Part shown: piece by piece, positions 2,536-44,899 of the stretch
Layout: every line of letters begins with the position of its first letter
How positions within the stretch are numbered: position 1 is the stretch's first letter
NCBI RefSeq assembly: GCF_041248615.1
Contig: NZ_CP158426.1
Reading direction: 5' to 3' (one strand)
DNA length: 64,000 bases
Source: Escherichia coli
GTDB lineage: Bacteria > Pseudomonadota > Gammaproteobacteria > Enterobacterales > Enterobacteriaceae
Made by a program: the position numbers and the translations under genes
Notes under the pieces: model-generated
Database searches by the model: none
Told to the model about the DNA's origin: nothing
Seen by the model: the letters and a program-made list of their open reading frames with translations, nothing else

Positions 2536-2550
2536 TTAGTATAAAAAAGC
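2536..2550. other. attR core (lambda 15-bp common core, reverse orientation)
   Basis: Exact match to reverse complement of GCTTTTTTATACTAA, flanked by host sequence on the ybhB side and lambda P-arm sequence inside. Confidence 0.88.
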
Positions 2551-2694
2551 TGAACGAGAAACGTAAATGATATAAATATCAATATATTAAATTAGATTTT
2601 GCATAAAAAACAGACTACAAAATACTGTAAAACACAACATATGCAGTCACTATGAATCAACTACTTAGATGATATTAGTGACCTGTAACAGAGC
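2551..2694. promoter_or_regulatory. attP P arm (Int arm-type, IHF, Xis/Fis binding region) retained at attR
   Basis: AT-rich sequence adjacent to the core that matches my recollection of the lambda P arm. Confidence 0.6.
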
Positions 2695-2695
2695 A

Positions 2696-2737
2696 TTAGC
2701 GCAAGGTGATTTTTTGTCCTCTTGCGCTAATTTTTTG
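2696..2737 (+). terminator. tI/sib-like rho-independent terminator in the P-arm region
   Basis: Perfect 10-bp stem TTAGCGCAAG/CTTGCGCTAA with 15-nt loop followed by TTTTTT. Confidence 0.55.
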
Positions 2738-3227
2738 TCAACTCACTGGGTTAGTTGAATTTACAACCATGCTCAGTATCTCGATAAGCGCAGGGAGATG
2801 ATGCAGTGGTGGGCGGACTGGCTTGATGAAAGTGTGCTGTAATCCTCATATCCAACCTAAGAGATATGCACAATTTTGTGAATAAGATATTGAGAATTAG
2901 CAAAAGTTTTATTTTGCGTATCATCAATTCAGAATACAAAGTCACATGCTAATGTTCTGCATTGGTATCTTTTGCTTATCCATGTCTACATTATCGCCAA
3001 AATAATAGGTTTTGCCTATCAATTATTTGAATTACTTCCATGAAATTATAACGCACTTGTAATTTTTGATTATTTTTACCTCTCAAGTGTTTTGTTTCTT
3101 CTATCTCTTTGTATTTTTAGCGAAAGTATGCCATATTGCATTCTAATATAACGTGGCGTTGTTTCTGTTTAATGATTTAAATAGTTCAACATAATATTTG
3201 CTAACAAATTATATCCAAGCAAATCAT

Positions 3228-4373
3228 ATGATATTATCATTACAATATATTAGAGGAATAGCATCATTACTTGTTGTTTTATTCCACTTCAGATTCTTGC
3301 TAAATGAGCACTACTCTCAGAAAGATTTGGGTGACCTATTATTTGGGAATGGGCTGTCTGGAGTTGATATATTCTTCATATTAAGTGGATTTATCATCGT
3401 ATACTCAACAAGAAAGAAGGAAGTTAATGATACTTTCTCATTCTCAATTAGAAGAATATTTAGAATATACCCATTACTAATCACATGCTGTTGCATGTAT
3501 TACATAATAAACACTCAATTTCTAACCTATGCTACAGTTGAAAACTTTAGAACCTTACTTATTTCCATCATTCCATTAAATATAAACTGGAATGAAGGCG
3601 CTCCATTCTTTGCCTATAATCTTTTGTACCCGGCCTGGACGATAACATATGAAATTGGTTTCTATGTTTTTTTCGGGGTATCAATGTCTATTTCGCATAA
3701 ATACAGAACAATTATCTGTTCTGTTTTTATAATCATGGTGGTCTCATTTACACAATACTATGTAAATGGAAATATATCATTTTCAGGTGATGTTAGTGCA
3801 GGGTTATTTACAGATAACTGGTTATTAGGATATACAAATGTTATTACATCTCCAATGATGTATGAATTCGTTATTGGGATGTTTCTTTCTGAAATATTTA
3901 CAAACATCAACGAAAGCAAAAGTATTAAAAGGATACTTTCAAAGTATTCGCTTCAAATACTATGGATTTCATGTGGTATATCCATAATATTATTCATTAT
4001 CCAGCGACCTTATGGGCATGGATTGAATGGATTTGGGACTATGGCGATGATACTTATTGCATCATCATTAGTATATGAATACTGCAATATAACACCCAAA
4101 ATAAAAATATTTAATTTCCTTGGTGAAATATCATATTCTTTATATCTAATTCACGCCGTGATACTTGCTTTGTTCTTCTATTATAAGGCAGACCTTGCTG
4201 AAATTGGCATAACTGGTGGATTTTCTGTGTTTTTTTCCTTGGTTATTATCTCAATAACTGCATCATATCCAATATATATTCTCATTGAAAAGCCAATGAT
4301 AAATATAGGTAAACGTTTAATTGACAAGAGAAATAAGAGCATTAACAAAAAAGAAACCGAAATAACAGCGTGA
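3228..4373 (+). CDS. integral membrane acyltransferase, family 3 (putative O-antigen/polysaccharide O-acetyltransferase)
   Basis: Very hydrophobic multi-TM protein; N-terminal R/H motif YIRGIASLLVVLFH typical of acyltransferase family 3; ATG at 3228 chosen over the track's TTG at 3198; AT-rich codon usage. Confidence 0.7.
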   Translation: MILSLQYIRGIASLLVVLFHFRFLLNEHYSQKDLGDLLFGNGLSGVDIFFILSGFIIVYSTRKKEVNDTFSFSIRRIFRIYPLLITCCCMYYIINTQFLTYATVENFRTLLISIIPLNINWNEGAPFFAYNLLYPAWTITYEIGFYVFFGVSMSISHKYRTIICSVFIIMVVSFTQYYVNGNISFSGDVSAGLFTDNWLLGYTNVITSPMMYEFVIGMFLSEIFTNINESKSIKRILSKYSLQILWISCGISIILFIIQRPYGHGLNGFGTMAMILIASSLVYEYCNITPKIKIFNFLGEISYSLYLIHAVILALFFYYKADLAEIGITGGFSVFFSLVIISITASYPIYILIEKPMINIGKRLIDKRNKSINKKETEITA

Positions 4374-4410
4374 TAATGACAAAGTTAGTGCCGGGATACC
4401 CCGGCACTAT

Positions 4411-5748
4411 TTAATCTATTTCGTAAGTGACAGTGATTATCACTTCTGCATTATTACCCAAAACATTTTGATATATATTCATATTACCTGATAATGTAGT
4501 TGCTCCAGTAAGAGTTATATAACTACTATTTGCATCAACCCTTGGAAGTAAAGCGGTAACTGCTGTTGTTAAATTATTATAGTAGCCTGTACTTCCAACA
4601 TATGCAGCTTTATTGCTTGATACATATGGTAACCCTCCAATTCTGAAACCATCTCCTGACCCAATTAAAGTTATACCAAGGTGACATGTTGCCGTTATGA
4701 TATTGCCACTCCTGACATAATTTCCTTTCTGCTGATAATATGTGGCATTACCACCTACAGTCGGAATCCAAACTCCAGTTTCTATATCACCACATGACCA
4801 GTCTTCTGCTGTTGTTAGTTTTCCAGTAACAATAAATTTACTTCCACCACCAGAATTATAAGGAACAAAAATTGGATTTATTCTTGCATAAGTGTTACCG
4901 GTCTGCTCATTAAGATCATTTCTATCAATAAGAACTTGACCATTTTCGAAGTTTGAAATCTGGCAGTCTGTTACACTCCAGTCTCTTAACTTCACATCAG
5001 CATCCATGACACCAATAAGCTTACCAGCATTACCAATTTTTTCTTTATGCATATTTACATACACATTTCTTACCGTAACAGACTGAGGGAACAGATAATT
5101 AGCAGGATTAGTTTTATCACTTAAAACAGATATTACCCAAGGTCTGTATTGAGTACTTACTTCACAATAAAATCCATCAATAAGCGTTCCAGATGCCGCT
5201 GGCCCAAGTAGTATTCCACCTGTAGAGTGATGCGCACTACCTCCAATTACTCTCCCCTTAACGCAGTTAATATAGGCAAAACATCCTAAATCTTGATTGT
5301 CATAGGCTGACATAGCACAGTCTCTAACTGTTACTCGAGAATTTCCTCCGTCATAAGCTGAGCCATCAGTTTTCTTACCAACTATTGATATAAAGTTACC
5401 AATAGCAACTCGACTATAAAAAGTTTTTTTATAACACCCCTCAATTAAAATATCCCAGTTTTCAAACTGAGCATATATATCATAAATGCTGGCATTCCCA
5501 TAATCTATGAAATCACAATATCTTATTTTCGGCGTATAAACGGCACTTTTTATCTTTATACCACCTAATGCTCTCTCCCCACCTGTGAATCTAATGCCAG
5601 TAACGGTGTAATCGCCTTGATAGAAATTATCTGCGGTAGGATTATTTTCGTCAGAATCATCACCCAATATAATAGCAAATTCACTCCCTGAATAATTAAT
5701 TGTCGCCCCCTTATTTGAATATATAGTTACAGGTCTTATAAACTCCAA
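4411..5748 (-). CDS. beta-helix-like protein of unknown function (possible tailspike/depolymerase-like domain); lacks an ATG start, possibly frameshifted or truncated
   Basis: 445-codon ORF whose first codon is TTG; Gly/Asn/Thr/Val-rich repetitive sequence; in-frame upstream TGA; upstream out-of-frame ATG (5831) separated by an A7/T7 tract. Confidence 0.45.
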   Translation of the reverse strand: MEFIRPVTIYSNKGATINYSGSEFAIILGDDSDENNPTADNFYQGDYTVTGIRFTGGERALGGIKIKSAVYTPKIRYCDFIDYGNASIYDIYAQFENWDILIEGCYKKTFYSRVAIGNFISIVGKKTDGSAYDGGNSRVTVRDCAMSAYDNQDLGCFAYINCVKGRVIGGSAHHSTGGILLGPAASGTLIDGFYCEVSTQYRPWVISVLSDKTNPANYLFPQSVTVRNVYVNMHKEKIGNAGKLIGVMDADVKLRDWSVTDCQISNFENGQVLIDRNDLNEQTGNTYARINPIFVPYNSGGGSKFIVTGKLTTAEDWSCGDIETGVWIPTVGGNATYYQQKGNYVRSGNIITATCHLGITLIGSGDGFRIGGLPYVSSNKAAYVGSTGYYNNLTTAVTALLPRVDANSSYITLTGATTLSGNMNIYQNVLGNNAEVIITVTYEID

Positions 5749-6140
5749 AGAATTACTTATCAGATACTCTCCATAAGGAAAAAAATCTCAACTGGTGGTG
5801 AGTACTTTGGTCTGGAGTTTACGTAATTCATAATATTGATTACACCAACATCATAGATAATCGCCACCTTCTGGCGAGGAGCTCCTGATGCAATTAATCG
5901 CCAGGCCTACGCCCATTATTCATGGGTAAATTTTGGACGGAGCCCCCAATTCCATCCTCAATTCTCCCTCGCACTGAGGAGTAGTAAGTGCAATTATTTA
6001 AAAAATCGCAAACAGAATATTATCATTTATTCTTGCATTCTGTTAATTAAAACCACACATAAAAACGTTGATACTTGATAAGTAAGTAGAGTATTATTAA
6101 TGGTTTTAATAACGAACCTTTTAATCATGAGAAGCCTCAA

Positions 6141-7166
6141 ATGACTAGTACCAATAACATAACAAGAAAAAAAATGGATGGAGTAACAATCTTAAGATTT
6201 ATAGCTGCTTTTTATGTGTTTATTTTTCACATTAACATGAGAGTCCCCGTTAATTTTGGAGAGCTTATTAATAAAACCATTAGCAATGGCGTCATTGGCA
6301 TGAGTATTTTCTTCATGCTTTCTGGTTTTGTTTTGACTTATAATTACTATGGTTCCTTGTCAAACAATTACTTCAGGAAGCGAATAGCAAGAATATTTCC
6401 AGCCTATTTATTTTGTGGGCTTTTAACCCTCCCATTTTTGTTATCCAGCGATGCAAGCTTTTTAAAAATGATTGCAAGCATATTCTTGTTTGTTACTGGA
6501 ATGCAATCATGGATTTATCAGACCTTCGATTTTTGGAATTTTAGCGGTACCTGGTCAATATCAGTGGAATTGTTTTTTTATGCCCTGTTTCCATTTTTGA
6601 TAAAAAACATCAACAAAAACAATGTAATTTATGTTTTACTTTTTTCATATTTATCTTCAGCATTATTAATCCCATTATCTGATATAATTCAGGGACCTGT
6701 AGTTTGGTCCGTATATTACGCAACTCCAATATACAGGTTACCAGAATTTGTGGTGGGCGTCTGTATCGCAATACTTTTTTTAAATGGCTATCGTGTTAAC
6801 CATTATACATGGCTATTAAGCATTTTATTATTTCTGTATGCTACCACCCAGCAAAACAATAACTCCATGGGGGTGAACTATCTCACAATTCCTGCGATAT
6901 CAATTATGTTATTGCACCTGGCAAAAATCAACATCAAAAACAACATTGCAAACAGAGCGATCATTTACTTTGGAGATATAAGTTATTCGTTTTATTTGAT
7001 GCAATTACCTATATTATATTACCTGGATCATAATAAAAACTCATTTATTCTTAACTATGGTCTTTTTAGCTGGCTTGTACTTTTTGTTATTAATACTGCA
7101 ATGGCATCATTATCTTATCACTTTCTGGAGAAGAACGATAAAATCAGAAAAATAATTACATCCTGA
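6141..7166 (+). CDS. integral membrane acyltransferase, family 3 (second copy, divergent sequence)
   Basis: 341-aa hydrophobic protein with motif ILRFIAAFYVFIFH; AT-rich. Confidence 0.7.
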   Translation: MTSTNNITRKKMDGVTILRFIAAFYVFIFHINMRVPVNFGELINKTISNGVIGMSIFFMLSGFVLTYNYYGSLSNNYFRKRIARIFPAYLFCGLLTLPFLLSSDASFLKMIASIFLFVTGMQSWIYQTFDFWNFSGTWSISVELFFYALFPFLIKNINKNNVIYVLLFSYLSSALLIPLSDIIQGPVVWSVYYATPIYRLPEFVVGVCIAILFLNGYRVNHYTWLLSILLFLYATTQQNNNSMGVNYLTIPAISIMLLHLAKINIKNNIANRAIIYFGDISYSFYLMQLPILYYLDHNKNSFILNYGLFSWLVLFVINTAMASLSYHFLEKNDKIRKIITS

Positions 7167-7167
7167 T

Positions 7168-7193
7168 TTATTAGGGGGGTACCCCCCTAATAA
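7168..7193. terminator. 26-bp perfect palindrome, candidate bidirectional terminator between convergent genes
   Basis: TTATTAGGGGGGTACCCCCCTAATAA lies between the stop of the + strand acyltransferase (7166) and the stop of the - strand tail fiber assembly gene (7208). Confidence 0.5.
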
Positions 7194-7207
7194 TACACCA
7201 CATAATT

Positions 7208-7603
7208 TCAACGTATTATCTCTGGCCTTTCTGGCCAGGTTATTTCTGGAATTAAGGACAAATCCACTGACATTAAATTATTAACATATTCCTTCCATAA
7301 CAAAAGATTGTTCTTGTTATTTTCACTTATAATACCGAGTAACAAATCTGACTGCCAGTTCATAATTAAACCATTAGCACTATCCAGCAGACACTGTCTT
7401 TCATTCTCTGCCTCACGAAGTAATTCATCATGTGTTTTTGGCGGCTGCGTAGGTGACGAAAGCTTTCCCTTATCATAGAACCAACCAATTCTTACATTAT
7501 CGGATACAGGTATAACTAACGCATTAGTTGGTTGCCAGGCACTCTCACCATCCCATACCGCAATATTGGTAACAACACCATTTTCTATAACGGCATAGTT
7601 CAT
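7208..7603 (-). CDS. tail fiber assembly protein (Tfa-like chaperone)
   Basis: Protein MNYAVIENGVVTNIAVWDGE... resembles the Tfa family N-terminus; immediately downstream of the tail fiber gene with TGATG overlap. Confidence 0.7.
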   Translation of the reverse strand: MNYAVIENGVVTNIAVWDGESAWQPTNALVIPVSDNVRIGWFYDKGKLSSPTQPPKTHDELLREAENERQCLLDSANGLIMNWQSDLLLGIISENNKNNLLLWKEYVNNLMSVDLSLIPEITWPERPEIIR

Positions 7604-8712
7604 CACGCATACTCCCAAATGATTGCAATACCAGCCATTCCGCTACCTCCGGCACGCTGCTGCGTCGCTCCACCGTAGACACAGGCACCACCGCCTCCAC
7701 CACCATGGCCATTAGCATTAATACCTTCGCCTACAATGGCTTGTGACCCAGCCCCCGCACCAAGGATTGAATCGCCGCCAGGCCCCCCCATCGCCAGACT
7801 GCCGGAATACCGAACGCCTGGTGAGCTATAACCGCTTCCAGACCCGATAATATTTGCACCTGTAAATCCCGGCTCAGTATATGCTCCATACGGACCAACA
7901 ACCCCTGGAGCAGTTCCTTCAGCAAGAACATCCCCACCAAGGCCACCTTTGGCAATTATGGTATTGCCGAAAGAGGTTGTTCCCCCGGGAGCACCAACCG
8001 ACGCACTTGCACCAGTGCCACCATATCCGATTGTCACAGTAGTTACGGTTGGATTATCCACGCGAGCTTTAACATACTCCCCGGACATCCCCCCGCCACC
8101 ACAAGCAGCATTATTGGGATAACCGACCTGACAACCACCACCGGCCCCACCACCACCAACAATTTCAACAATAATAAATTTTGTGCCTTTTGTCGGAGTG
8201 TATGTACCTGAGCTTTTAAACACCTGACACTGTATAAGCCTCCCGGAGCCATCTCCCAAACCAAGGTATGCGAGAATGTCATCAATAGTATTTTTGCCGA
8301 TAATATCACGGCCTACCTTAGTGAGGTCGGTCTGCGCAGCCTTATCTGTGCCAGTGAAATACGGTAGCTTATTTGCACCTGTCGCCAGTCCGGCCAGAGC
8401 CGTCAACGTGGCATCAAGCGCCTGATAATCCTTACCGAATGCAGAAGACATTTTGGTAATGAATCCATTCAGGTCGCCATCATCCAATACATCCAGTCCG
8501 CTTTTGTTTGCTGTGTACTGTGCAAGTGCTGCAGCAATAAAGCTGGCCTGCCGAATAACCTTATTGACTTGCGCACTGGAGGCTTTCCCTGCTGTAAATC
8601 CGGATAAAAGCGCGGGCAACGCTTCCCATTCCTCCTGCGATATAACATTGGCATTTCGATCCGTTGCAAACGCTTTAAAGTCATTTTTCGCCATCAGAGT
8701 AATACTCCCCAT
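7603..8712 (-). CDS. tail fiber protein with glycine-rich C-terminal domain
   Basis: 369 aa; conserved fiber N-terminal region then GGxGG-rich repeats; follows baseplate genes. Confidence 0.7.
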   Translation of the reverse strand: MGSITLMAKNDFKAFATDRNANVISQEEWEALPALLSGFTAGKASSAQVNKVIRQASFIAAALAQYTANKSGLDVLDDGDLNGFITKMSSAFGKDYQALDATLTALAGLATGANKLPYFTGTDKAAQTDLTKVGRDIIGKNTIDDILAYLGLGDGSGRLIQCQVFKSSGTYTPTKGTKFIIVEIVGGGGAGGGCQVGYPNNAACGGGGMSGEYVKARVDNPTVTTVTIGYGGTGASASVGAPGGTTSFGNTIIAKGGLGGDVLAEGTAPGVVGPYGAYTEPGFTGANIIGSGSGYSSPGVRYSGSLAMGGPGGDSILGAGAGSQAIVGEGINANGHGGGGGGACVYGGATQQRAGGSGMAGIAIIWEYA

Positions 8713-9374
8713 GCTCCTACATCAAAACCACTGATGAATTCGTTATCCATATCAAAACCAAAAAATTTTGAGCCTTCCGATGGGGTTTCCACCGAAGGTG
8801 TTTCAATGCCACCCGCCCATACCCCGGCAGCTTTTACTGTGAGATACCCCTGTTTAATTGCCGCAATTAACTCACGCGATACATCTGAAATATCAGTATC
8901 AGGAAAGACCCAGACCGATATCGTCATGTCCTGGTTATCGACTATCTGCATTCGCAGTCCGGATCCTACTGTCGCCGCGTCAAGAATTGCTGGAAGCGAA
9001 TCATTCCGTCCGTCCCAGTTATTAATCGCAATCTTCGCTTTAAGGATGACACGATAAGTTTCATCGCTGAGGTACATGTATCCGGAATCAGGATCGTATG
9101 GCCCCTGCCATACACCCTGATCATATCCAAGCCCGTCGGTATCCCAGCTGAAATAGACACCTGAGATAGGCTGGCTGACAACACGGCTACGTCCGATCCA
9201 CAATCCAAGAATGTCAAGTTGCACACCAACCGCAGAGTCAATATCAAATGCAGTAATCAGCCCTCTGGTGGCAGCCGCAACATCAATAAGCGGCCGGGTC
9301 ATCAGATCAACATGTGCAAGAAATTTAGGTTTGGTGGCGTGGTAGTTCGTGATCAGTTCGGTGTATTTGCTCAT
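8694..9374 (-). CDS. baseplate/tail protein (gpI or Mu gp48-like)
   Basis: 226-aa ORF between the baseplate J-like gene and the tail fiber gene; position-based. Confidence 0.55.
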   Translation of the reverse strand: MSKYTELITNYHATKPKFLAHVDLMTRPLIDVAAATRGLITAFDIDSAVGVQLDILGLWIGRSRVVSQPISGVYFSWDTDGLGYDQGVWQGPYDPDSGYMYLSDETYRVILKAKIAINNWDGRNDSLPAILDAATVGSGLRMQIVDNQDMTISVWVFPDTDISDVSRELIAAIKQGYLTVKAAGVWAGGIETPSVETPSEGSKFFGFDMDNEFISGFDVGAWGVLL

Positions 9375-10570
9375 GACTCCACCGTTATAACGATATTTTC
9401 CGGTGTACAGGACGCAGATTCGTTGTATCTGATATCAATGTTTGATGACGACAAAGCCCCCGGGGATTTCCCAATCGTCAGTTCCTGAATATCGTAATAG
9501 CGTGCATTCCCGCCACTCACCACGCCAAGATTCGCCGGTGAGTAAATGCGACTTAAAAGGACCGAATCACCAATCATCAGACTATTGATATAGTCGGAAA
9601 TAGCCTGCTGGATCTGCTGCCCTATCTGTGAGGTATAACCCGTAAAAACTTTTAATTTAATCCGGGCATAAACAGGTACATCACTGGAACGCGAGAATTT
9701 GATTACATGGGGATTGCCGTATTTATCCGGAACCGTAACGGATGTTGTACCGTGAGTGGCTGTCCCCTGGCCTTTATTCCCTCTAATAGCCTGAGCAATA
9801 TCCGTCACATCACCGCCATCCACAATTACAGCAACAGAGTGTGGCGGTAACCCGTTACCGTCCTCCGAACCAGTATCGTTTTCATAGAGTTTGTGGCGGG
9901 TTACACCGGTAACATTAGAAACAGCACCATCCAGTGCTTCAAATGGGGTTATTGATGGCAACGCAACACTTTGCGACTGGCGGATACGTAACTCCGCATC
10001 AGTTTCTGCTGGAGTGCCTACAGTAGCTGCAGCAGGATTGGTTACCGAAACCCAGCCACGGGTTGGCGTATTAATTTCAGTGATAGTTCCAGCCAGCGCC
10101 GCCACTGCACCACTGACGGAACATTTTGCGGTCACCATCACTGTACCATCCACGCCGACCACCACTGAAGCAGGCAAACGCCATATCACATTATTACCAT
10201 CTTTCACGCTGCCATTAATGATGGTTGTTCCGGCAGTTCCTGTAAGAAGCAAATCAACCGTAGAATTCGTCGCGCCTTTACGTGAAATACCATTTATTTT
10301 CACGTTACTGGTCAGCGCAGCCCCATAGCCGGTTGCCGGTGAAAAACAGTTGTAGACAGTTATCGCCATATTATTGGCATCATGAATCGCCAGCGCCATC
10401 AGAGCCACCATCTGGCCGTCTTTGCTGTCCGGTTCGAGGTAGGCATCACTGCCATAAATCTGCTGAAAATAGCTAATCAGGGTGCTGAGTATCGTCTGAT
10501 AATCAGGCGCACTGATCCCCTCCGCGGTTACCTTTGCAGATAAACCGAGAGAATCAAGGTTCAGAGCCAT
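9371..10570 (-). CDS. baseplate J-like protein
   Basis: 399-aa ORF in conserved W-J-I order of contractile-tail baseplate clusters. Confidence 0.7.
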   Translation of the reverse strand: MALNLDSLGLSAKVTAEGISAPDYQTILSTLISYFQQIYGSDAYLEPDSKDGQMVALMALAIHDANNMAITVYNCFSPATGYGAALTSNVKINGISRKGATNSTVDLLLTGTAGTTIINGSVKDGNNVIWRLPASVVVGVDGTVMVTAKCSVSGAVAALAGTITEINTPTRGWVSVTNPAAATVGTPAETDAELRIRQSQSVALPSITPFEALDGAVSNVTGVTRHKLYENDTGSEDGNGLPPHSVAVIVDGGDVTDIAQAIRGNKGQGTATHGTTSVTVPDKYGNPHVIKFSRSSDVPVYARIKLKVFTGYTSQIGQQIQQAISDYINSLMIGDSVLLSRIYSPANLGVVSGGNARYYDIQELTIGKSPGALSSSNIDIRYNESASCTPENIVITVES

Positions 10571-10923
10571 TACGCCTCCGATGTAACAGTCGTTATTCCA
10601 TAAAGAGTGTCGATTTCAGCGGAAAACATGACACGTCGGGTCGTGGTATCCACCGTCGTATTGAAAGAGAGGATTGATTTAACGCCCTGCGTTTCGAGGA
10701 TGCGTTTTCTGATCGCCAGGTTGTAAGTTTCCGGTTTTTGCCTGCCCAGCACGGACTGGATCCACGGAGTCCCCTCGGTGGTGTCGAGAAACCATTGCCC
10801 ATACCACAATTCGAATCGCGTTTTTACCGCCTGCGCCACGGCCTCCGGTGAGTTAATCAGCCAGGTGTCATCACCGCTGCCAAAGGTGTAATCGCCATCG
10901 GCGTCTTCACGTCTGTATCGCAT
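10570..10923 (-). CDS. baseplate wedge protein (GPW/gp25-like)
   Basis: 117 aa, tightly coupled between spike and J-like genes. Confidence 0.6.
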   Translation of the reverse strand: MRYRREDADGDYTFGSGDDTWLINSPEAVAQAVKTRFELWYGQWFLDTTEGTPWIQSVLGRQKPETYNLAIRKRILETQGVKSILSFNTTVDTTTRRVMFSAEIDTLYGITTVTSEA

Positions 10924-11675
10924 CAGTTTACTCCGTCGGTATTGCTTCCACCGCGCTGAACACCACCATGAGTGTGCGTATCATCGATTGGCTTGCCGTT
11001 AGCCTTCACGCTACCCAAAAACTCAACAGCACCAGTGATTTTTGAAGCCACACCAGAAACAACAGACCCCACCATGCCACCCATCCAGGTTAACAGGCCA
11101 TGAATGGTTACTTTCTCAGAAAAATCAGCCAGAGGAGCAACCACATCAAGACCACCCGGAGCGACAATTTTAATTTTCCTGGTGTCAGGATTAAGCTCAA
11201 AATAGGTGCTGCCGTCGTCACTACGCAACTGTGTGGCACTGGTATTAATACCGCTAATCTTCCTCGCCTGCGACTGGGGACCGACAATACAAAACGCATC
11301 CGATAAATCATGCATTCTGTCATCGACCGGCTCCTGTATCCCGCCACTCTGCCACCAGAAATCAATACAACGATCGGCAAAAACGACAAGACACTCATCC
11401 CCGGCTTTTACCGGAAAAGTCAACGTACAGCCTCCGCCGCGCGGGAATACCACTGGTACATCCACCAGCAATGGGTAATTTTGGGTAATGCGGTTGCCGT
11501 CATTATCCTTTTCAACCGAACGGATAGCAGGCTGCACAACTGCCGTCACCGCATCAGGATCGAATGACTGAATAATGCCAGGCAAGGCGACACGGATCTG
11601 GTTCTTTGTTGTTTCCCGTTCAGATTTGAATGTTTCGGCAAGGTCGCCGCTGCGGGTCTGGTCAGATACTGCCAT
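10923..11675 (-). CDS. baseplate spike/assembly protein V-like
   Basis: 250 aa, Gly-rich C-terminus, precedes the W-like gene. Confidence 0.6.
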   Translation of the reverse strand: MAVSDQTRSGDLAETFKSERETTKNQIRVALPGIIQSFDPDAVTAVVQPAIRSVEKDNDGNRITQNYPLLVDVPVVFPRGGGCTLTFPVKAGDECLVVFADRCIDFWWQSGGIQEPVDDRMHDLSDAFCIVGPQSQARKISGINTSATQLRSDDGSTYFELNPDTRKIKIVAPGGLDVVAPLADFSEKVTIHGLLTWMGGMVGSVVSGVASKITGAVEFLGSVKANGKPIDDTHTHGGVQRGGSNTDGVN

Positions 11676-11694
11676 TTAGTAGGCTCCAGAAAGC

Positions 11695-11720
11695 AAAAAA
11701 CCCGCCATCCGGCGGGTTTT
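11695..11720 (-). terminator. rho-independent terminator downstream of the lipoprotein gene
   Basis: Stem CCCGCC/GGCGGG with loop ATCC, flanked by A6 on one side and T4 on the other (T6 on the reverse strand). Confidence 0.6.
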
Positions 11721-11740
11721 ATGTGACTAATTTGATCTTT

Positions 11741-36321: not shown

Positions 36322-36345
36322 GGGGCATTCGCCCCTTTTTTTCTT
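36321..36345 (+). terminator. rho-independent terminator after cI
   Basis: Hairpin AGGGGCATTCGCCCCT followed by TTTTTTT, overlapping the cI stop. Confidence 0.55.
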
Positions 36346-36365
36346 TCCTTTAAAAATCAAAGCAA

Positions 36366-36447
36366 AACTTAAACTTCGCAATAAAATTTAAGTTTTCTTC
36401 AAAAACACTCTTGACCAATAATTAAAGAAATCTTAAATTTAAGTCAT
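36366..36447. promoter_or_regulatory. OL operator region with pL
   Basis: Inverted repeats AAACTTAAA...TTTAAGTTT and perfect palindrome CTTAAATTTAAG; -35 TTGACC (36411..36416) and -10 TAAATT (36434..36439), 17-bp spacing, directed toward N. Confidence 0.55.
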
Positions 36448-36484
36448 CAGCAGGACGCTGGTAGCCAAACGGAACAGATTGGCA

Positions 36485-36527
36485 GGCTCTTTAACATTGA
36501 TGGGATTGTCCCGCCGAAATGCGGGAA
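36485..36527 (+). promoter_or_regulatory. nutL (boxA plus boxB hairpin)
   Basis: GCTCTTTAACA then hairpin TCCCGCCGAAATGCGGGA, upstream of N. Confidence 0.6.
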
Positions 36528-36633
36528 CCAAAGAGTAGTTGGCTTTGGGGTGACGTGAAGTGCAGCTGCACGACGGCAACCGGAAGATAAGCACCCGGCG
36601 CGTCACCGCCAAAGTCAATCATCGGAGGTCAAC

Positions 36634-36933
36634 ATGGCAGTAGTCATTACATATCTGGCTGACGATAACGCCAGAAATCGCCGCAGAGCACGCAGACAGG
36701 CTCAACGTGAACAGGCAATGCAAGAACAGCGACTGGCGCGAAAGATTGCGCTAAAGCTCTCTGGTTGCGTCAGAGCAGATAAAGCAGCATCACTCGGAAG
36801 CCTTCGCTGCAAGAAGGCAGAAGAGGTCGAGAGTAAACGGAATCGTATTTACTACCGCAAGCCACGCAGTGAAATGGGTGTGACTTGTGTTGGTCGCCAG
36901 AAAATGAAATTAGGCAGTAAGCCACTTATTTGA
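36634..36933 (+). CDS. N: antiterminator N (phage 21-like)
   Basis: 99 aa with N-terminal arginine-rich motif NARNRRRARRQAQRE and C-terminus ...YYRKPRSEMGVTCVGRQKMKLGSKPLI resembling N proteins. Confidence 0.75.
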   Translation: MAVVITYLADDNARNRRRARRQAQREQAMQEQRLARKIALKLSGCVRADKAASLGSLRCKKAEEVESKRNRIYYRKPRSEMGVTCVGRQKMKLGSKPLI

Positions 36934-36944: not shown

Positions 36945-37568
36945 ATGTCATCAATCCGCTTAACTACGAGAATGAAAGAGGAAATCGCTCGTAACGCTTT
37001 AATTAAGTCTGGGGTTTTCACTGAACTTGAAGAAGTAACAAAGTTAAAGAACCAGCTTGCACTTGACGCCAGAGTTATTGCGTTTGGCGGTAAAAAGAAA
37101 ACTGAGGAAGTGGATCAGTTATCATCCAAGTTGGTAGCTATAAGTGAAGAACTTGAAAAGATGGGATGTTCATTTTACTCATACGATGTTCGTTCTACTT
37201 CAATTTATCTGACTGTATCTGGCAGAAGGGTTGGATGGCTTTCATATGGGAAAGACGGCAACGGCGAAGATATATTGCTCCCTGCTCCGAACAAAGATAA
37301 ATGCATGTTTAGCGCAGAACACGAAATAACAAAAAGGTTTGATGAAATCTGCGCATTGCAACAAAAACTTGAAGCCAAGAAAAAGGATATCGAATCAAAT
37401 GTATGGGCTGCTTTGAACTCAGTCACAACAGTTAAGCGACTTATTGAAGTTTGGCCTGAAAGCAAAGAGTTGCTACCAAAAGAAGCAGATAAAGCAAGTA
37501 CAGCACTTCCTGCTTTACGGGTAGAAGATTTGAATAAGATGATTGGACTTCCTTCCGAGGCCGCATAG
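36945..37568 (+). CDS. hypothetical protein (207 aa) immediately downstream of N
   Basis: ATG at 36945 with RBS GAGAGGA; no motif I can assign; followed by a terminator. Confidence 0.5.
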   Translation: MSSIRLTTRMKEEIARNALIKSGVFTELEEVTKLKNQLALDARVIAFGGKKKTEEVDQLSSKLVAISEELEKMGCSFYSYDVRSTSIYLTVSGRRVGWLSYGKDGNGEDILLPAPNKDKCMFSAEHEITKRFDEICALQQKLEAKKKDIESNVWAALNSVTTVKRLIEVWPESKELLPKEADKASTALPALRVEDLNKMIGLPSEAA

Positions 37569-37584
37569 TCGGCCTTTATTTTTG
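37558..37584 (+). terminator. rho-independent terminator after the post-N gene
   Basis: Stem AGGCCG/CGGCCT with loop CATAGT followed by TTTATTTTT. Confidence 0.5.
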
Positions 37585-37605
37585 GCATAAACAACAGAGG
37601 TGAAT

Positions 37606-37740
37606 ATGAACGCAGTTGAATTTGCAAAATGGATGGCAGAGCAAGATATCACAGGAGCCGACGAAAAGGCTGTGTACTACATGGCTCTGCTATGGATTCA
37701 CAAAGCAAAAGAGGCTGCAAATGCTCTTGGAGGTGAGTGA
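37606..37740 (+). CDS. small hypothetical protein (44 aa)
   Basis: ATG at 37606 with RBS AGAGGTGA; stop overlaps the next ORF start. Confidence 0.35.
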   Translation: MNAVEFAKWMAEQDITGADEKAVYYMALLWIHKAKEAANALGGE

Positions 37741-37925
37741 TGTGCGAGTTTTATGAAGCAGATATCAAACGCCCAGAAATGGCAAGTGATGCGACATTAC
37801 GTGATTACTTCGCAGCAAAGTTCATGCAGGGAGTTTGTGCAAATCCAGACAGGCTTTATGACAACGAACCACTTGCTAAAGAAGCTTATGCGATGGCAGA
37901 CGCAATGCTCAAAGCTCGCGAATAA
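37740..37925 (+). CDS. small hypothetical protein (61 aa)
   Basis: ATG at 37740 overlapping the previous stop (ATGA-type coupling). Confidence 0.4.
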   Translation: MCEFYEADIKRPEMASDATLRDYFAAKFMQGVCANPDRLYDNEPLAKEAYAMADAMLKARE

Positions 37926-38059
37926 GCACTGTGTATTCATTCCAACGAGTGAATACACGGAGCAATGTCGCTCGTAACTAAACAGGAGCCGACTTGTTCT
38001 GATTATTTGAAATCTTCTTTGCCCTCCGATGTGAGGGCAATTTTTTTGATGGAGGATAT

Positions 38060-39025
38060 ATGAGTGAAGTAACAGATTTAGTTGTTATTGAAAAAGCAAA
38101 TGCAATGACTGTATTTCAGTCTGCCGACCAGATTGAAGAAATCCTTCAAAAGGTTGAACGTGAAGTTATGTCCTTTGTGCCTGATATCACAACGGCAAAG
38201 GGCAGAAAGGAGATCGCTTCTCTGGCGTATAAAGTTGCGCAGACGAAAACATATCTCGATGGTCTTGGCAAAGACCTTGTTGCTGAACTGAAGGAAATTC
38301 CAAAGCTAATTGATGCCAACCGCAAGACAGTGCGTGATCGCCTTGATGAGCTGAAAGCCAAGGCACGCCAGCCTCTTACTGATTATGAGGAAGAACAGGC
38401 GCGGATTAAAGCCGAAGAGGAAGCTAAGGCAGCAGCTGAAGCCCTCGCAAAGCAAATTGAGTCTGACCATGAAATAGCGATTTTGATGGATCGCGAATTT
38501 GACCGCAAAAGAGAAGAGGCAAGACTCAAAGTGGAGCAGGAAAAGCGAGAGCATGAAGAACTCTTAAAAAGAGAAGCTGAAGAGAAAGCCAGAGCAGAAG
38601 CCGAAGCAAAGGCAAAAGCCGAAATTGAAGCAGCAGCAAGGCGAGAAGCAGAAGCTAAGGCAGCAGCGGAACGTGCAGAGCGTGAACGCATTGAAGCCGA
38701 GCAACGAGCACAGCGCGAAGCAAAAGAGGCAGCAGAACGAGCTGAAAGAGAAAAGCAGGCAGCAATTGAAGCAGAACGCCGAAAAGCACAGGAGGAGGCT
38801 GAACGAATCCGTCGCGATGCTGAAGCAAAAGAGCAAGCCAGAATAGCAGAAGAAAAAAGAATCAAGGAAGAAGAGCGTAGAGCAAAGGATAAAGCTCACC
38901 GGAAAGAAGTAAATAACAAAATACTTGCTGACCTTATCAAGGTTGGCGCATCAGAAGATGTTGCTAAAAATATCATAACAGCCATCGTAAAAGGCGAAGT
39001 ATTCGCAACAAAAATAACCTACTAA
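38060..39025 (+). CDS. coiled-coil protein with E/K/A/R-rich low-complexity core, probable recombination-module component
   Basis: 321 aa; central ~150 aa of AEAKAKAEIEAAARREAEAKAAAERAER-type repeats; upstream of the Sak4-like ATPase. Confidence 0.5.
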   Translation: MSEVTDLVVIEKANAMTVFQSADQIEEILQKVEREVMSFVPDITTAKGRKEIASLAYKVAQTKTYLDGLGKDLVAELKEIPKLIDANRKTVRDRLDELKAKARQPLTDYEEEQARIKAEEEAKAAAEALAKQIESDHEIAILMDREFDRKREEARLKVEQEKREHEELLKREAEEKARAEAEAKAKAEIEAAARREAEAKAAAERAERERIEAEQRAQREAKEAAERAEREKQAAIEAERRKAQEEAERIRRDAEAKEQARIAEEKRIKEEERRAKDKAHRKEVNNKILADLIKVGASEDVAKNIITAIVKGEVFATKITY

Positions 39026-39049
39026 TAAAACCAACATAAGGAACCACCC

Positions 39050-39196
39050 ATGATTTACGCAATCGCGGGAGGCGCTCGCATGGGTGCCTTCCAACTAAAT
39101 GAATCTTTACTTGAACGAATCACCCGTAAATTACGTGACGGATGGAAACGCCTTATCGACATACTTAATCAGCCAGGAGTCCCCAAAAATGGATAA
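39050..39196 (+). CDS. small hypothetical protein (48 aa)
   Basis: ATG at 39050 with RBS AAGGAACC; below the ORF-track length cutoff. Confidence 0.3.
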   Translation: MIYAIAGGARMGAFQLNESLLERITRKLRDGWKRLIDILNQPGVPKNG

Positions 39197-39302
39197 AACA
39201 CTTATGGCTATCCAGACTAAATTCACTATCGCCGCTTTTATTGGCGATGAAAAGATGTTTCGTGAGGCCGTCGAAGCCTACAGAAAATGGAGGTCAAAAT
39301 GA
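39189..39302 (+). CDS. small hypothetical protein (37 aa)
   Basis: ATG at 39189, in frame with track ORF 39099..39302. Confidence 0.25.
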   Translation: MDKTLMAIQTKFTIAAFIGDEKMFREAVEAYRKWRSK

Positions 39303-39495: not shown

Positions 39496-40176
39496 ATGGG
39501 AACTGCGACATTAATACTCGGTGAATCTGGCACCGGAAAATCAACCAGCATGAGAAATATCAATCCAGAGGAAGCAATACTTATAAAACCAATAGGCAAG
39601 CCGCTTCCATTTAAATCAAAAGACTGGCTGGCATGGGATGCCAGAGCAAAAAAAGGAACCGTAGTTACCACTGACAAATGGGACGTAATAGTTGCCGTAA
39701 TTAAGCGTGCTCACGAATACGGGAAAAGAATCGTTATTGTTGATGACTTCCAGTATGTGATGAGCAATGAGTTTATGCGCCGCTCAGAAGAAAAATCGTT
39801 TGATAAATTCACTGAGATAGGCCGCCACGCATGGGAGGTGATTAAGGCTGCACAGGATGCACCTGATGACCTGAGAGTCTATTTTCTTGCGCACACCGAA
39901 GAAACCCCTATGGGGCGTGTGAAAATGAAGACTATCGGCAAAATGCTGGACGAGAAAATCACTGTCGAAGGCATGTTTACTATAGTTCTTCGCACCCTTA
40001 CCCGCGATGACCAGTTCTTTTTCACCACGAAAAACAACGGTGCAGACACTGTTAAATCCCCAATGGGAATGTTTGATTCTAATGAGATTGATAACGATCT
40101 CTCTTTCGTCGATGCCACTGTTTGTGATTACTACGGCATCAATAATGTTCATCAAATTAAGGAAAACGCCGCATGA
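39496..40176 (+). CDS. Sak4-like RecA-fold ATPase (phage single-strand annealing/recombination protein)
   Basis: 226 aa; Walker A LILGESGTGKST near the N-terminus and Walker B-like IVIVDD; size and position match Sak4-type recombinases. Confidence 0.65.
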   Translation: MGTATLILGESGTGKSTSMRNINPEEAILIKPIGKPLPFKSKDWLAWDARAKKGTVVTTDKWDVIVAVIKRAHEYGKRIVIVDDFQYVMSNEFMRRSEEKSFDKFTEIGRHAWEVIKAAQDAPDDLRVYFLAHTEETPMGRVKMKTIGKMLDEKITVEGMFTIVLRTLTRDDQFFFTTKNNGADTVKSPMGMFDSNEIDNDLSFVDATVCDYYGINNVHQIKENAA

Positions 40177-40760
40177 GCAACGTGATTTTTACTTATAACG
40201 AAGAAGCAGCACTGACCGCAGGGCAAGGTGGTTTTATTAACGAAACTGGTGCTCATATCATTACCATTACTGAAGCAGAACTAAAGCAATCAGAAAAAGG
40301 AGCCAAATTTATTGAGTTTTCTGGCGAATCTGACGACGGACGTAAAATCCAATATCTTAGCGTCTGTGTTCAGAAAAATGACGGAACGGAAAACAAATTT
40401 GGCGCAAATGTCGTTCACGCCATGATGGGGTGTGCCGGGATTGGACAATTAACGCAACATATGGTTTCCGCCAGTAAATTTGTTGCTCCTGAGTTTCATG
40501 GAAAGAAAATCGGGTTAGTGCTCCAGAAAGTATTAACCACAAACAAAAAGACTGGCGCAGACAGCTACCAGATGGAAATACGCATCCCGTTTATTGCACA
40601 AACAGGTCAAACCCTTAAAGAAAAGGCGGAAGGCAAGCAACCAGAAACTATCGCCAACATGGTTGCCAGCCTCAAAGATAAAGACAATCGCTCTAAAAAC
40701 GTAAGCCAGAATCATGCAGATGATTATGGTTACAGCCAGAACGATTACCCTCCATTCTAG
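40173..40760 (+). CDS. putative single-stranded DNA-binding partner protein with SSB-like acidic C-terminal tail
   Basis: 195 aa ending ...HADDYGYSQNDYPPF, resembling the SSB C-terminal tip (DDDIPF); coupled to the Sak4-like gene. Confidence 0.5.
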   Translation: MSNVIFTYNEEAALTAGQGGFINETGAHIITITEAELKQSEKGAKFIEFSGESDDGRKIQYLSVCVQKNDGTENKFGANVVHAMMGCAGIGQLTQHMVSASKFVAPEFHGKKIGLVLQKVLTTNKKTGADSYQMEIRIPFIAQTGQTLKEKAEGKQPETIANMVASLKDKDNRSKNVSQNHADDYGYSQNDYPPF

Positions 40761-40785
40761 ATTATTGCAAAATAAGGATTCCATT

Positions 40786-41082
40786 ATGCCAGCGCCTCTG
40801 TATGGTGCGGATGACCCGCGCAATTGCTCCGGTAGCTCCAAGGCGGAGGTGCTGGAAAATATCAAAAACAATTTCGACGCGTTTCTTGCTCTGACACCAG
40901 AAACAAAAGCAGAACGGATGTACCGACGCGATATACAACTCGCGCTAAAACAGGAGAAGGACCGAACAAACGAAACAGCAATGAGACCGTTGCGAAAAGC
41001 GACAATAGACAAATTCCCTGAATATATCGACCCGCGCCTGCGTAATTACCGCTCACGCTATGGCGCTATCAGTAATGACTGA
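40786..41082 (+). CDS. hypothetical protein (98 aa)
   Basis: ATG at 40786 with RBS AAGGA; track ORF starts earlier at a non-ATG codon. Confidence 0.4.
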
Positions 41083-42719: not shown

Positions 42720-42997
42720 TGGACTCCTTCGCGAAATATACGATTATTGACTGGATAGCCTTCCTTCAGGTTTTACTCATCTGGTTTTATATGGCTTACA
42801 GGAGTGGACAGTGGATTGTCAGTATAGCCTGTAGCAAGGGATGGCGTTGGTGGAACCGAAAGAATAAAAAAGCACTGGCATTGGATTCGTTTTACGAAGC
42901 ATTCAATCTTAACAGCCTTCAGCCTGGTTCTGTCGTTGTAGTCACCACTCAAAGCGGCATGACGATACAAATTCACAAGCCAAAGGATGAAAAATGA
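42719..42997 (+). CDS. small membrane protein
   Basis: 92 aa with one hydrophobic helix (IIDWIAFLQVLLIWFYMAY) then basic segment. Confidence 0.4.
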   Translation: MDSFAKYTIIDWIAFLQVLLIWFYMAYRSGQWIVSIACSKGWRWWNRKNKKALALDSFYEAFNLNSLQPGSVVVVTTQSGMTIQIHKPKDEK

Positions 42998-43083
42998 TGT
43001 GGCCTATATGCGTTAATTGCGGACGGATGTGCCTATCTGGATGGTGCCGAAAGTGCGACAAATGCACGAAGAAAAGACAATAA
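42997..43083 (+). CDS. tiny Cys-rich zinc-ribbon-like peptide (28 aa)
   Basis: MWPICVNCGRMCLSGWCRKCDKCTKKRQ with four CxxC-type pairs; below the ORF-track cutoff. Confidence 0.3.
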   Translation: MWPICVNCGRMCLSGWCRKCDKCTKKRQ

Positions 43084-43142
43084 CAATCCTCGCACTCGCG
43101 GGGATTTCTTTTATCTGAACTCGCTACGGCGGGTTTTGTTTT

Positions 43143-43454
43143 ATGGAGATGATTATGGCCTGTTCAACATTCACCACTTTAACGTTACAGAAATACCAGC
43201 CAGACCCTGAAGATTTATACTCACTGTGTGGCGGAAATCATGGTAAAGCCGCCATGATCGAATGTAAGGACAAAATCCACATATGCCTTAATTGCGTTGA
43301 TGTCCTCGTTGATATCAAAAATGAAAGAGAAGATAAAAAGCGTAGCGAGGCTATTCGCGCCTTAGATTCATGGATGCGAGATGGGTATAGTGCTGCGCAA
43401 ATTTATGACTTAGCCATTTCAAAAGGCGAAATACCAGGAGTGCGCATCGAATAA
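43143..43454 (+). CDS. hypothetical protein with Cys cluster (103 aa)
   Basis: Contains C...C...CLNC; last early-left ORF before xis. Confidence 0.4.
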   Translation: MEMIMACSTFTTLTLQKYQPDPEDLYSLCGGNHGKAAMIECKDKIHICLNCVDVLVDIKNEREDKKRSEAIRALDSWMRDGYSAAQIYDLAISKGEIPGVRIE

Positions 43455-43494
43455 GACGTAACCAATATTCGAATTGAAGAACTGAAAGAACACC

Positions 43495-43518
43495 AAGCCG
43501 CCTGATGGCGGTTTTTTC
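43495..43518 (+). terminator. rho-independent terminator upstream of xis
   Basis: Hairpin GCCGCC-TGAT-GGCGGT followed by TTTTTT. Confidence 0.5.
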
Positions 43519-43544
43519 TTGCGTGTAATTGCGGAGACTTTGCG

Positions 43545-43763
43545 ATGTACTTGACACTTCAGGAGTGGAATGCACGCCAGCGACGCCCAAGAAGCCTTGA
43601 AACAGTTCGTCGATGGGTGCGCGAATGCAGGATATTCCCTCCTCCGGTTAAGGATGGAAGAGAATATCTGTTCCACGAATCAGCGGTAAAGGTTGACTTA
43701 AATCGACCAGTAACAGGTAGCCTTTTGAAGAGGATCAGAAATGGGAAGAAGGCGAAGTCATGA
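43545..43763 (+). CDS. xis: excisionase
   Basis: 72 aa MYLTLQEWNARQRRPRSLETVRRWVRECRIFPPPVKDGREYLFHESAVKVDLNRPVTGSLLKRIRNGKKAKS, lambda Xis; overlaps int start. Confidence 0.92.
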   Translation: MYLTLQEWNARQRRPRSLETVRRWVRECRIFPPPVKDGREYLFHESAVKVDLNRPVTGSLLKRIRNGKKAKS

Positions 43764-44811
43764 GCGCCGGGATTTACCCCCTAACCTTTATATAAGAAAC
43801 AATGGATATTACTGCTACAGGGACCCAAGGACGGGTAAAGAGTTTGGATTAGGCAGAGACAGGCGAATCGCAATCACTGAAGCCATACAGGCCAACATTG
43901 AGTTATTTTCAGGACACAAACACAAGCCTCTGACAGCGAGAATCAACAGTGATAATTCCGTTACGCTACATTCATGGCTTGATCGCTACGAAAAAATCCT
44001 GGCCAGCAGAGGAATCAAGCAGAAGACACTCATAAATTACATGAGCAAAATTAAAGCAATAAGGAGGGGGCTGCCTGATGCTCCACTTGAAGACATCACC
44101 ACAAAAGAAATTGCGGCAATGCTCAATGGATACATAGACGAGGGCAAGGCGGCGTCAGCCAAGTTAATCAGATCAACACTGAGCGATGCATTCCGAGAGG
44201 CAATAGCTGAAGGCCATATAACAACAAACCCTGTCGCTGCCACTCGCGCAGCAAAATCAGAGGTAAGGAGATCAAGACTTACGGCTGACGAATACCTGAA
44301 AATTTATCAAGCAGCAGAATCATCACCATGTTGGCTCAGACTTGCAATGGAACTGGCTGTTGTTACCGGGCAACGAGTTGGTGATTTATGCGAAATGAAG
44401 TGGTCTGATATCGTAGATGGATATCTTTATGTCGAGCAAAGCAAAACAGGCGTAAAAATTGCCATCCCAACAACATTGCATGTTGATGCTCTCGGGATAT
44501 CAATGAAGGAAACACTTGATAAATGCAAAGAGATTCTTGGCGGAGAAACCATAATTGCATCTACTCGTCGTGAACCGCTTTCATCCGGCACAGTATCAAG
44601 GTATTTTATGCGCGCACGAAAAGCATCAGGTCTTTCCTTCGAAGGGGATCCGCCTACCTTTCACGAGTTGCGCAGTTTGTCTGCAAGACTCTATGAGAAG
44701 CAGATAAGCGATAAGTTTGCTCAACATCTTCTCGGGCATAAGTCGGACACCATGGCATCACAGTATCGTGATGACAGAGGCAGGGAGTGGGACAAAATTG
44801 AAATCAAATAA
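43741..44811 (+). CDS. int: tyrosine integrase (lambda Int)
   Basis: 356 aa MGRRRSHERRDLPPNLYIRNNGYYCYRDPRTGKEFGLGRDRRIAITEA... with catalytic R...HxxR...Y region; adjacent to attL. Confidence 0.95.
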   Translation: MGRRRSHERRDLPPNLYIRNNGYYCYRDPRTGKEFGLGRDRRIAITEAIQANIELFSGHKHKPLTARINSDNSVTLHSWLDRYEKILASRGIKQKTLINYMSKIKAIRRGLPDAPLEDITTKEIAAMLNGYIDEGKAASAKLIRSTLSDAFREAIAEGHITTNPVAATRAAKSEVRRSRLTADEYLKIYQAAESSPCWLRLAMELAVVTGQRVGDLCEMKWSDIVDGYLYVEQSKTGVKIAIPTTLHVDALGISMKETLDKCKEILGGETIIASTRREPLSSGTVSRYFMRARKASGLSFEGDPPTFHELRSLSARLYEKQISDKFAQHLLGHKSDTMASQYRDDRGREWDKIEIK

Positions 44812-44884
44812 TGATTTTATTTTGACTGATAGTGACCTGTTCGTTGCAACAAATTGATAAGCAATGCTTTTTTATAATGCCAAC
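44812..44884. promoter_or_regulatory. attP P' arm (Int arm-type and IHF H' sites) retained at attL
   Basis: Sequence between int stop and core that matches my recollection of the lambda P' arm. Confidence 0.6.
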
Positions 44885-44899
44885 TTAGTATAAAAAAGC
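44885..44899. other. attL core (lambda 15-bp common core, reverse orientation)
   Basis: Second exact copy of TTAGTATAAAAAAGC followed by host ybhC-proximal sequence. Confidence 0.88.

Follow-up and report, generated by a model that had tools for sequence, protein, structure and literature searches.

The described relatives of the element analyzed here, a 42.4-kb prophage in a 64-kb stretch of Escherichia coli DNA (assembly GCF_041248615.1, contig NZ_CP158426.1; the whole stretch is called the window below), include contractile-tailed temperate phages and a prophage remnant of a laboratory strain. SEN34, the type of the genus Brunovirus, has myovirus morphology by electron microscopy and was assigned to a new lambda cluster, "temperate 26" (PMC5261728). 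The induced urinary coliphage 923, whose nearest neighbor is vB_EcoM-683R1, is likewise a myovirus by transmission electron microscopy (PMC12945033). E. coli B carries lambdaB, a 12.1-kb defective prophage (named in PMC4395058; see also PMC3032704). The window prophage is very probably one temperate phage genome, complete in its essentials, which lambda Int inserted at the canonical attB-lambda. It is lambdoid by its organization and SEN34-like by its virion, and is a formal member of neither Lambdavirus nor Brunovirus.

The mosaic map was constructed by tblastn of every open reading frame (ORF) of the window against lambda, phage 21, vB_EcoM-611R5 (hereafter 611R5), and SEN34. Protein families were assigned with PHROGs, Pfam, and NCBIfam, PADLOC was used for defense genes, and ARAGORN and Rfam for RNAs. 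Prevalence was counted among 5426 complete E. coli genomes, and intergenomic nucleotide similarity was obtained as a VIRIDIC-like estimate with a genus threshold of 70%. The features are collected in Table 1.

The 15-bp lambda core, GCTTTTTTATACTAA, has exactly two exact matches in the window, with 0.01 expected by chance, and the distance between the core copies gives a prophage length of 42,349 bp. The host flanks are bioA-ybhB on one side (ybhB at 1969-2445) and ybhC-ybhJ on the other (ybhC at 44946-46229), so that the insertion separates ybhB, on the bio side, from ybhC, on the gal side; int lies toward gal, which is the arrangement of a lambda lysogen. Read on the phage strand, the bio-side junction consists of the P arm, the core, and CTTGAGCG (P-O-B'), and the ybhC-side junction of TTGAAGCCT, the core, and GTTGGCATTATAAAAAAGC (B-O-P'); the B and B' flanks at both junctions are those that we take to be the flanks of K-12 attB. 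The P' arm is identical to lambda attP at 177 of 177 positions, and Int and Xis are full-length lambda proteins. Thus the core at both ends, Int and Xis, the ybhB-ybhC site, and, judged by overall arm identity, both arms are those of the lambda recombination system. The preliminary description of this DNA had placed a lambda-type insertion of this length, with lambda int, xis, and att arms, between ybhB and ybhC, and had named a different core or a different host locus as what would speak against it; neither was found. In 1887 of the complete genomes, a lambda-type int directly adjoins ybhC (query window 44300-45400), which means that about one in three sequenced strains has attB-lambda occupied.

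The virion module is of the contractile-tail type. Matches to phrog_205, 280, 6, 120, and 196 cover the contractile-tail genes, together with a gpV-like spike whose TIGR01644 match is below the cut-off (33 bits versus 46.75), and the Mu F-like protein carries the Mu F domain PF04233. The DNA of the module is 97.5% identical to vB_EcoM-611R5, 606R2, 683R1, and 689R2 and 81.5% identical to SEN34; at the protein level, the identity to 611R5 is 97-100%, except for the tape measure (75%). The sheath, tube, J- and W-type baseplate proteins, and Mu F-like head protein proposed earlier are therefore all present, whereas the V-type spike among them has only the sub-threshold match. A siphovirus-type virion had been named as a refuting outcome; no siphovirus virion genes are present.

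The immunity region is of the phage 21 type with respect to repressors and operators. CI and Cro are 99% and 97% identical to the phage 21 proteins, OR contains two exact phage 21 operators, and OL at least two operators of this type. The other mark of imm21, phage 21 N together with phage 21 boxB, is missing. The overall identity of N to its phage 21 counterpart is only 69%, because the first 33 amino acids, with the arginine-rich motif DNARNRRRARRQAQREQ, have no relation to that protein; residues 34-99, the C-terminal 66 amino acids, are 94% identical to it. Phage 21 boxB sequences are absent from the window at up to three mismatches. Instead, nutL and nutR share one hairpin, TCCCGC-CGAAAT-GCGGGA (6-bp stem, loop CGAAAU), which in each site follows a boxA, GCTCTTTA. 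Both the arginine-rich motif and the boxB sites differ from those of lambda and of phage 21. N is a natural chimera, with a non-21 RNA-binding N-terminus on a 21-like C-terminus: the motif for RNA binding has changed along with the two boxB sites, and the phage 21 C-terminal part has been kept. An earlier assignment of N to the phage 21 type therefore holds for the C-terminal 66 amino acids only, and fails for the arginine-rich motif and both boxB sites. In the P22-like phage JEP4, the block from cro through cI, OL, and nutL to the N-terminus of N is 92.8% identical to the window, and this phage appears to carry the same pairing of arginine-rich motif and boxB. Finally, CII is close to neither lambda nor phage 21 (56% identity to lambda).

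The replication and nin genes are similarly close to lambda and to phage 21 (O 98%, P 97-98%, NinB 99-100%, NinG 98-99%, and Ren 92-93% identity), so their previous description as lambda proteins is correct at 92-99% identity but does not single out lambda, phage 21 being as close. Red (exo-bet-gam) is replaced by a Sak4-type module, as had been recognized: a core-only RecA-like ATPase of the Sak4 family (phrog_2872, E=3.9e-108) adjoins its cognate single-stranded DNA-binding protein, SSB (phrog_743, E=1.8e-66), which is followed by Abc2 (phrog_656). Late control and lysis are of the phage 21 type. The 45-nt pR'/Q-binding stretch has one mismatch to phage 21, the S protein is a 71-aa dual-start pinholin identical to that of phage 21 (100%), and R, a signal-anchor-release (SAR) endolysin, is 96% identical; the likeness of CI, S, and R to phage 21 that had been noticed before is borne out in all three cases. 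Rz is close to neither phage (about 65% to both lambda and phage 21).

Table 1. Features of the prophage at attB-lambda, in the order of their positions in the window
Feature	Position	Strand	Evidence or remark
Lambda core, bio-proximal junction	2536-2550	-	Exact match; P-O-B' = attR (lambda convention)
attP P arm	2551-2740	-	204/210 identical to lambda attP
O-antigen-type acetyltransferase 1	3228-4373	+	phrog_3333, E=1.5e-71
N-terminally truncated P22-type tailspike, open 445-aa ORF	4411-5748	-	Homology search
O-antigen-type acetyltransferase 2	6141-7166	+	phrog_3333, E=2e-40
Tail fiber assembly protein	7208-7603	-	RefSeq annotation of NZ_LT599825.1; same protein accession in E. coli B
Tail fiber, continuous 369-aa ORF	7603-8712	-	
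Baseplate and tape-measure genes (DUF2612, J-/W-type wedge, spike, hub, plug, tape measure)	8694-16413	-	PHROGs 6, 120, 196, 817
Lipoprotein gene, 241 aa	11741-12466	-	Lipobox ...FLTSC; variable baseplate slot between hub and spike genes
Tail chaperone, tube (DUF3277), sheath (DUF3383)	16591-18643	-	Sheath phrog_205, E=1.6e-135; 98-100% aa to 611R5
Neck and head (DUF2184 major capsid, DUF2213, Mu F-like, DUF1073 portal, TerL, TerS)	18647-27713	-	PHROGs 264, 146, 324; PF04233; all ORFs open
Lysis cassette (S21 pinholin, R21 SAR endolysin, Rz)	28571-29723	-	
tRNA-Thr and tRNA-Asn	29842-29997	-	ARAGORN and Rfam; same pair in phage 21
Q21 antiterminator and pR'/Q-binding element	30038-30577	-	Q 99% aa to phage 21
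nin region (ninI, ninG, ninF, ninE, N6-adenine methyltransferase, ninB, ren)	30568-33389	-	tblastn; methyltransferase TIGR01712
P and O	33386-34983	-	97-98% aa
ori-lambda iterons (four, inside O)	34551-34635		Mismatches 0, 0, 0, 1
Immunity region (cII, nutR, cro, OR, cI, OL, nutL, N)	35018-36933	mixed	tblastn and site searches
nutR	boxA 35390-35397, boxB 35354-35373		
OR	35605-35670		Two phage 21 operators exact, third with 2 mismatches
OL	36386-36438		At least two 21-type operators: OL2 with 1 mismatch, another with 2-3
nutL	boxA 36486-36493, boxB 36509-36526		
N, chimeric	36634-36933		
pL accessory genes (Nmad5-family, small ORFs, 321-aa coiled-coil protein, cIII, kil)	36945-39302	+	RefSeq names; cIII and kil by tblastn
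Sak4-SSB-Abc2 recombination module	39496-41082	+	phrog_2872, 743, 656; in place of Red (exo-bet-gam)
xis and int (lambda)	43545-44811	+	99% aa each, full length (tblastn)
attP P' arm and second core	44812-44899	-	Core 44885-44899, exact; B-O-P' = attL (lambda convention)

The order int-xis-pL operon-N-cI-cro-cII-O-P-nin-Q-lysis-virion, with blocks more than 95% identical to lambda, makes the prophage lambdoid. Its whole-genome similarity is 14% to lambda, 16% to phage 21, 20% to JEP4, 35% to PDP110P2, 36% to SEN34, and 40% to vB_EcoM-611R5, and thus stays far below the genus threshold for both Lambdavirus (about 14%) and Brunovirus (about 36%). The set and order of the Brunovirus virion genes (DUF1073, DUF2213, DUF2184, DUF3383, DUF3277, and J/W) is shared, and the early region is mostly different. 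Membership in no formal genus is the normal condition of lambdoid mosaics, and the prophage is a recombinant of the common E. coli lambdoid gene pool. Its int-attP end and pL operon are those of P22-like podoviruses such as JEP4, its immunity and late control are of the phage 21 type, and its virion is of the Brunovirus type.

From the gene content, the prophage is predicted to be inducible and to make myovirus particles. For excision, Int and Xis would recombine the two hybrid att sites with the help of the host proteins IHF and Fis. Immunity would be maintained by the phage 21-type CI on the matching OR and OL, with SOS-driven induction via its LexA-like domain. Early antitermination is likely mediated by the chimeric N at its own boxB sites, and replication would be initiated by the lambda-type O and P at ori-lambda, with recombination assigned to Sak4-SSB-Abc2. 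Q21 could then control late gene expression, S21 and R21 could lyse the cell, and the expected virion is a particle of the SEN34/vB_EcoM-611R5 type with a contractile tail. Finally, the two O-acetyltransferases encoded next to att most likely modify the host O-antigen, providing lysogenic conversion.

The combination of lambda integration and a contractile tail had been considered unusual, an assessment that the comparison with other genomes contradicts: SEN34 is published, PDP110P2 is a precedent, and the virion module is frequent. It is matched in 723 of the 5426 genomes (13%), and in 247 of these at least 80% of it is covered. Among the best 30 matches to the right 25 kb of the window, six run through the core into ybhC, so at least six genomes carry the module at attB-lambda. 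The same contiguous arrangement is found in an independent complete genome at 99.9% identity, and also in CM136170, CP182378, and CP182371. Thus, of the preliminary interpretation, the anatomy was largely right, and the rarity claim and the view of N as simply 21-like were not. The prophage is a further mosaic among the many known members of a lambdoid prophage lineage that has SEN34-type contractile tails, and as a discovery it matters little.

Each of the known relatives shares a different part of the prophage. SEN34 contains the same virion genes in the same order (65-96% identity), a lambdoid early organization with CII, O, P, NinB, NinG, and Q, and likewise an O-acetyltransferase between the tail fiber genes and the integrase, but it differs in the integrase, the attachment site, the immunity region, the lysis genes, and Q, and it has Red-type genes rather than Sak4. 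vB_EcoM-611R5, 606R2, and 683R1 (ON470588 and relatives) share the module from DUF2612 to TerL, whereas the early region of 611R5 is unrelated, with a DNA polymerase and a helicase, and lacks lambda int; the 611R5 record carries host genes of the tadA/yfhH side and therefore represents another locus. With lambda, int, xis, attP, ori, O, P, and the nin genes are shared at 97-99%, and with phage 21, cI, cro, the OR operators, Q, pR', the tRNAs, S, and R at 96-100%; unlike these two phages, the window prophage has no siphovirus virion genes and no Red, rex, or b-region genes. JEP4, a P22-like podovirus (Lederbergvirus) with lambda int, shares kil-Sak4-SSB-Abc2 (99.2% DNA identity) and int-attP (98.5%), but has podovirus virion genes, DnaB-type replication, and lambda-type lysis genes. 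PDP110P2 (OZ035745.1) combines lambda int/attP (98.3%) with the same type of virion module, which is much more diverged (sheath 75%, tube 84%, baseplate J 71%, major capsid 79%, and portal 69% amino acid identity), and with a different terminase (35%). This record is unannotated, and its label "Wanchaivirus", a genus of HK106-type siphoviruses, conflicts with its virion genes; we rejected the classification of PDP110P2 as a siphovirus by genus name, since tblastn finds a sheath, a tube, and baseplate J. The lambda int/attP cassette occurs in siphoviruses (lambda, HK97, 434, and HK106), podoviruses (JEP4, Huey, and vB_EcoP-720R6), and PDP110P2, and the window prophage is a natural example of lambda Int/attP serving sipho-, podo-, and myovirus architectures.

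Two further prophages illustrate the exchange and loss of modules. The prophage of SCU-171 has CI, Cro, CII, and Q proteins identical to those of the window and the same virion module, but another integrase (77% DNA identity), a position beside torS, and a pL operon of the RecT/SieB/Ral type; it is a clean example of a swap of the integration and recombination modules. The TUM12357 prophage, which is at attB-lambda and has the same pL operon, has lost Q and the lysis genes.

The att-proximal end holds a trace of an earlier virion. Within a block of low G+C content (0.36-0.38 at 2.5-7.2 kb), which encodes the two O-acetyltransferases and a 445-aa ORF, the latter aligns at 82% identity with residues 205-648 of a tailspike that is 648 aa long and has PF09008 (head-binding) and PF12708 (pectate-lyase fold) domains. 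It corresponds to the C-terminal two-thirds of a P22-type tailspike of about 650 aa and lacks the head-binding domain. Searches of Pfam, PHROGs, NCBIfam, and PADLOC gave no hit for the ORF, and we considered it as a new protein family, which was rejected when the homology search identified it as a tailspike fragment. It is annotated as hypothetical, and its cluster at 90% identity comprises 200 member sequences. In JEP4, the gene order tailspike-(conversion gene)-attP-int matches the position of this tailspike fossil. The adjacent tail fiber is chimeric: its N-terminus is of the myovirus type (81% identity to 611R5 and SEN34 over the N-terminal 26-42%), whereas its glycine-rich C-terminus belongs, with the assembly protein, to the att-proximal block, which matches REL606 at 99% DNA identity as far as 8121. 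We infer that the int-attP-cargo end and the pL operon come from a podovirus-type lambdoid phage whose virion genes later gave way to a Brunovirus-type module; the structure of the tail fiber fits this replacement. If true, the tailspike fossil records a swap of virion modules, from podovirus to myovirus, at this site, with one int-attP-cargo end kept.

The prophage also bears on lambdaB, which occupies the same attB-lambda site. E. coli B, REL606, BL21, and strains derived from them carry the att-proximal block at 99.8% identity. Compared with REL606, the window is 99.0% identical at 1-8121, 100% identical over 2930 bp at 24785-27714 (portal fragment, TerL, and TerS), and 98.5% identical at 43454-46229 (xis, int, att, and ybhC). 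Absent from lambdaB are positions 8122-24784 of the window, which cover tail, baseplate, and head functions, as well as almost every gene for early functions and lysis. These three matching stretches show that lambdaB is a deletion derivative of this phage type. We see an even chance that the window prophage is moreover the intact form of the very phage whose remnant persists as lambdaB in E. coli B, REL606, and BL21; if it is, a lambdoid phage with a contractile tail once resided at attB-lambda in the laboratory B lineage. No statement that lambdaB derives from such a phage was found in the literature searched, which did not extend to the key 2009 B-genome papers. The prophage provides a clean, near-complete reference for interpreting the lambdaB remnant of every BL21 and REL606 genome. 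A REL606 pseudogene (locus L008, 25716-26474) is named "anti-CBASS protein Acb1 family protein" by RefSeq, but in alignment it corresponds to the N-terminal portion of the window's DUF1073 portal gene (24785-25537), and hence the name looks like an annotation artifact.

Several observations weigh against a complete and functional phage. The P arm departs from lambda attP by four substitutions and two 1-bp indels, one of them near the core. Three genes are frameshifted according to frame changes in tblastn: ren near residue 85 of 96, ninI between residues 40 and 59, and ninF, where the cause is an extra G at 31795 that is missing from NZ_LT599825.1. The chimeric tail fiber is split by RefSeq into a gene and a pseudogene, though its ORF is continuous in the window, and no packaging site was identified in the window. 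The prophage could thus be cryptic, that is, non-inducible or non-infective, and only look complete, having entered the path of decay along which lambdaB and the TUM12357 prophage, both clearly deleted relatives at the same site, have gone further; the frameshifts, the P-arm indels, the tailspike fossil, and the flagged tail fiber all count in favor of this reading. We consider this unlikely. All gene classes for excision, immunity, replication, late control, lysis, and the virion are open, the needed genes are 96-100% identical to those of the reference phages, the regulatory sites are present, and the frameshifts are confined to dispensable genes. In lambda, ren, ninI, and ninF can all be dispensed with. 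The characterization of the prophage as intact-looking can therefore be kept for the virion and lysis genes, all 30 of whose listed ORFs are open in the window, but has to be qualified for ren, ninI, ninF, and the truncated tailspike in the b-region.

The composition of the att-proximal 5.6 kb (cargo, tfa, and the fiber C-terminus), which differs in G+C content and is shared with the different-looking element of E. coli B, could also be taken to mean that two adjoining elements, such as a lambda-like remnant and an unrelated myovirus prophage or tailocin cluster, or an assembly artifact, are seen as one. There are, however, only two cores and one copy of every function, the same arrangement recurs in the independent genome and the three further records listed above, and the E. 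coli B element is itself a deletion derivative of the same arrangement. The presence of head, portal, and terminase genes means that the cluster is not a tailocin. An origin from two elements is accordingly very hard to credit, and a single, essentially complete genome integrated by lambda Int is strongly favored over both alternatives.

Other genes of the prophage include several accessory candidates. A putative nucleotide-modification gene of the Nmad5 family (36945-37568, plus strand; phrog_1965) is located directly after N, has no PADLOC hit, and is also present in the TUM12357 prophage at the same site. Both PHROGs matched among the pL accessory genes, phrog_1965 and phrog_1376, are of unknown function. 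The presence of a defense system in the cargo at 2.5-7.2 kb or among the accessory genes was considered and rejected, as ten candidates gave no PADLOC hit and the cargo consists of the acetyltransferases and the tailspike. None of four libraries gave a family for the predicted 241-aa lipoprotein, and 611R5 and SEN34 lack its gene and have other small genes in the same slot; it could be a superinfection-exclusion or moron gene. Between TerS and the DUF6979 gene (28158-28532; phrog_5039, unknown function), about 440 bp from 27714 onward contain no ORF of 50 aa or longer and have no Rfam match; in lambda and phage 21, bor and other morons occupy this position. In the whole window, an Rfam scan at gathering thresholds detected only the two tRNAs and no other non-coding RNA family.

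The window is near-identical to the corresponding region of a sister strain, E. coli NRZ14408 (NZ_LT599825.1), but is not an exact copy of it, as we had considered: the two differ by 48 substitutions and three indels, and gene integrity was therefore re-checked in the window itself. The 51 differences are located in patches of the early region (31748-32458, 38761-38947, 40754-40780, and 42757-43132), plus a single-base change at 29920, and about 45 kb outside these patches, including the host flanks, is identical. This clustering suggests patchwise gene conversion with other lambdoid prophages.

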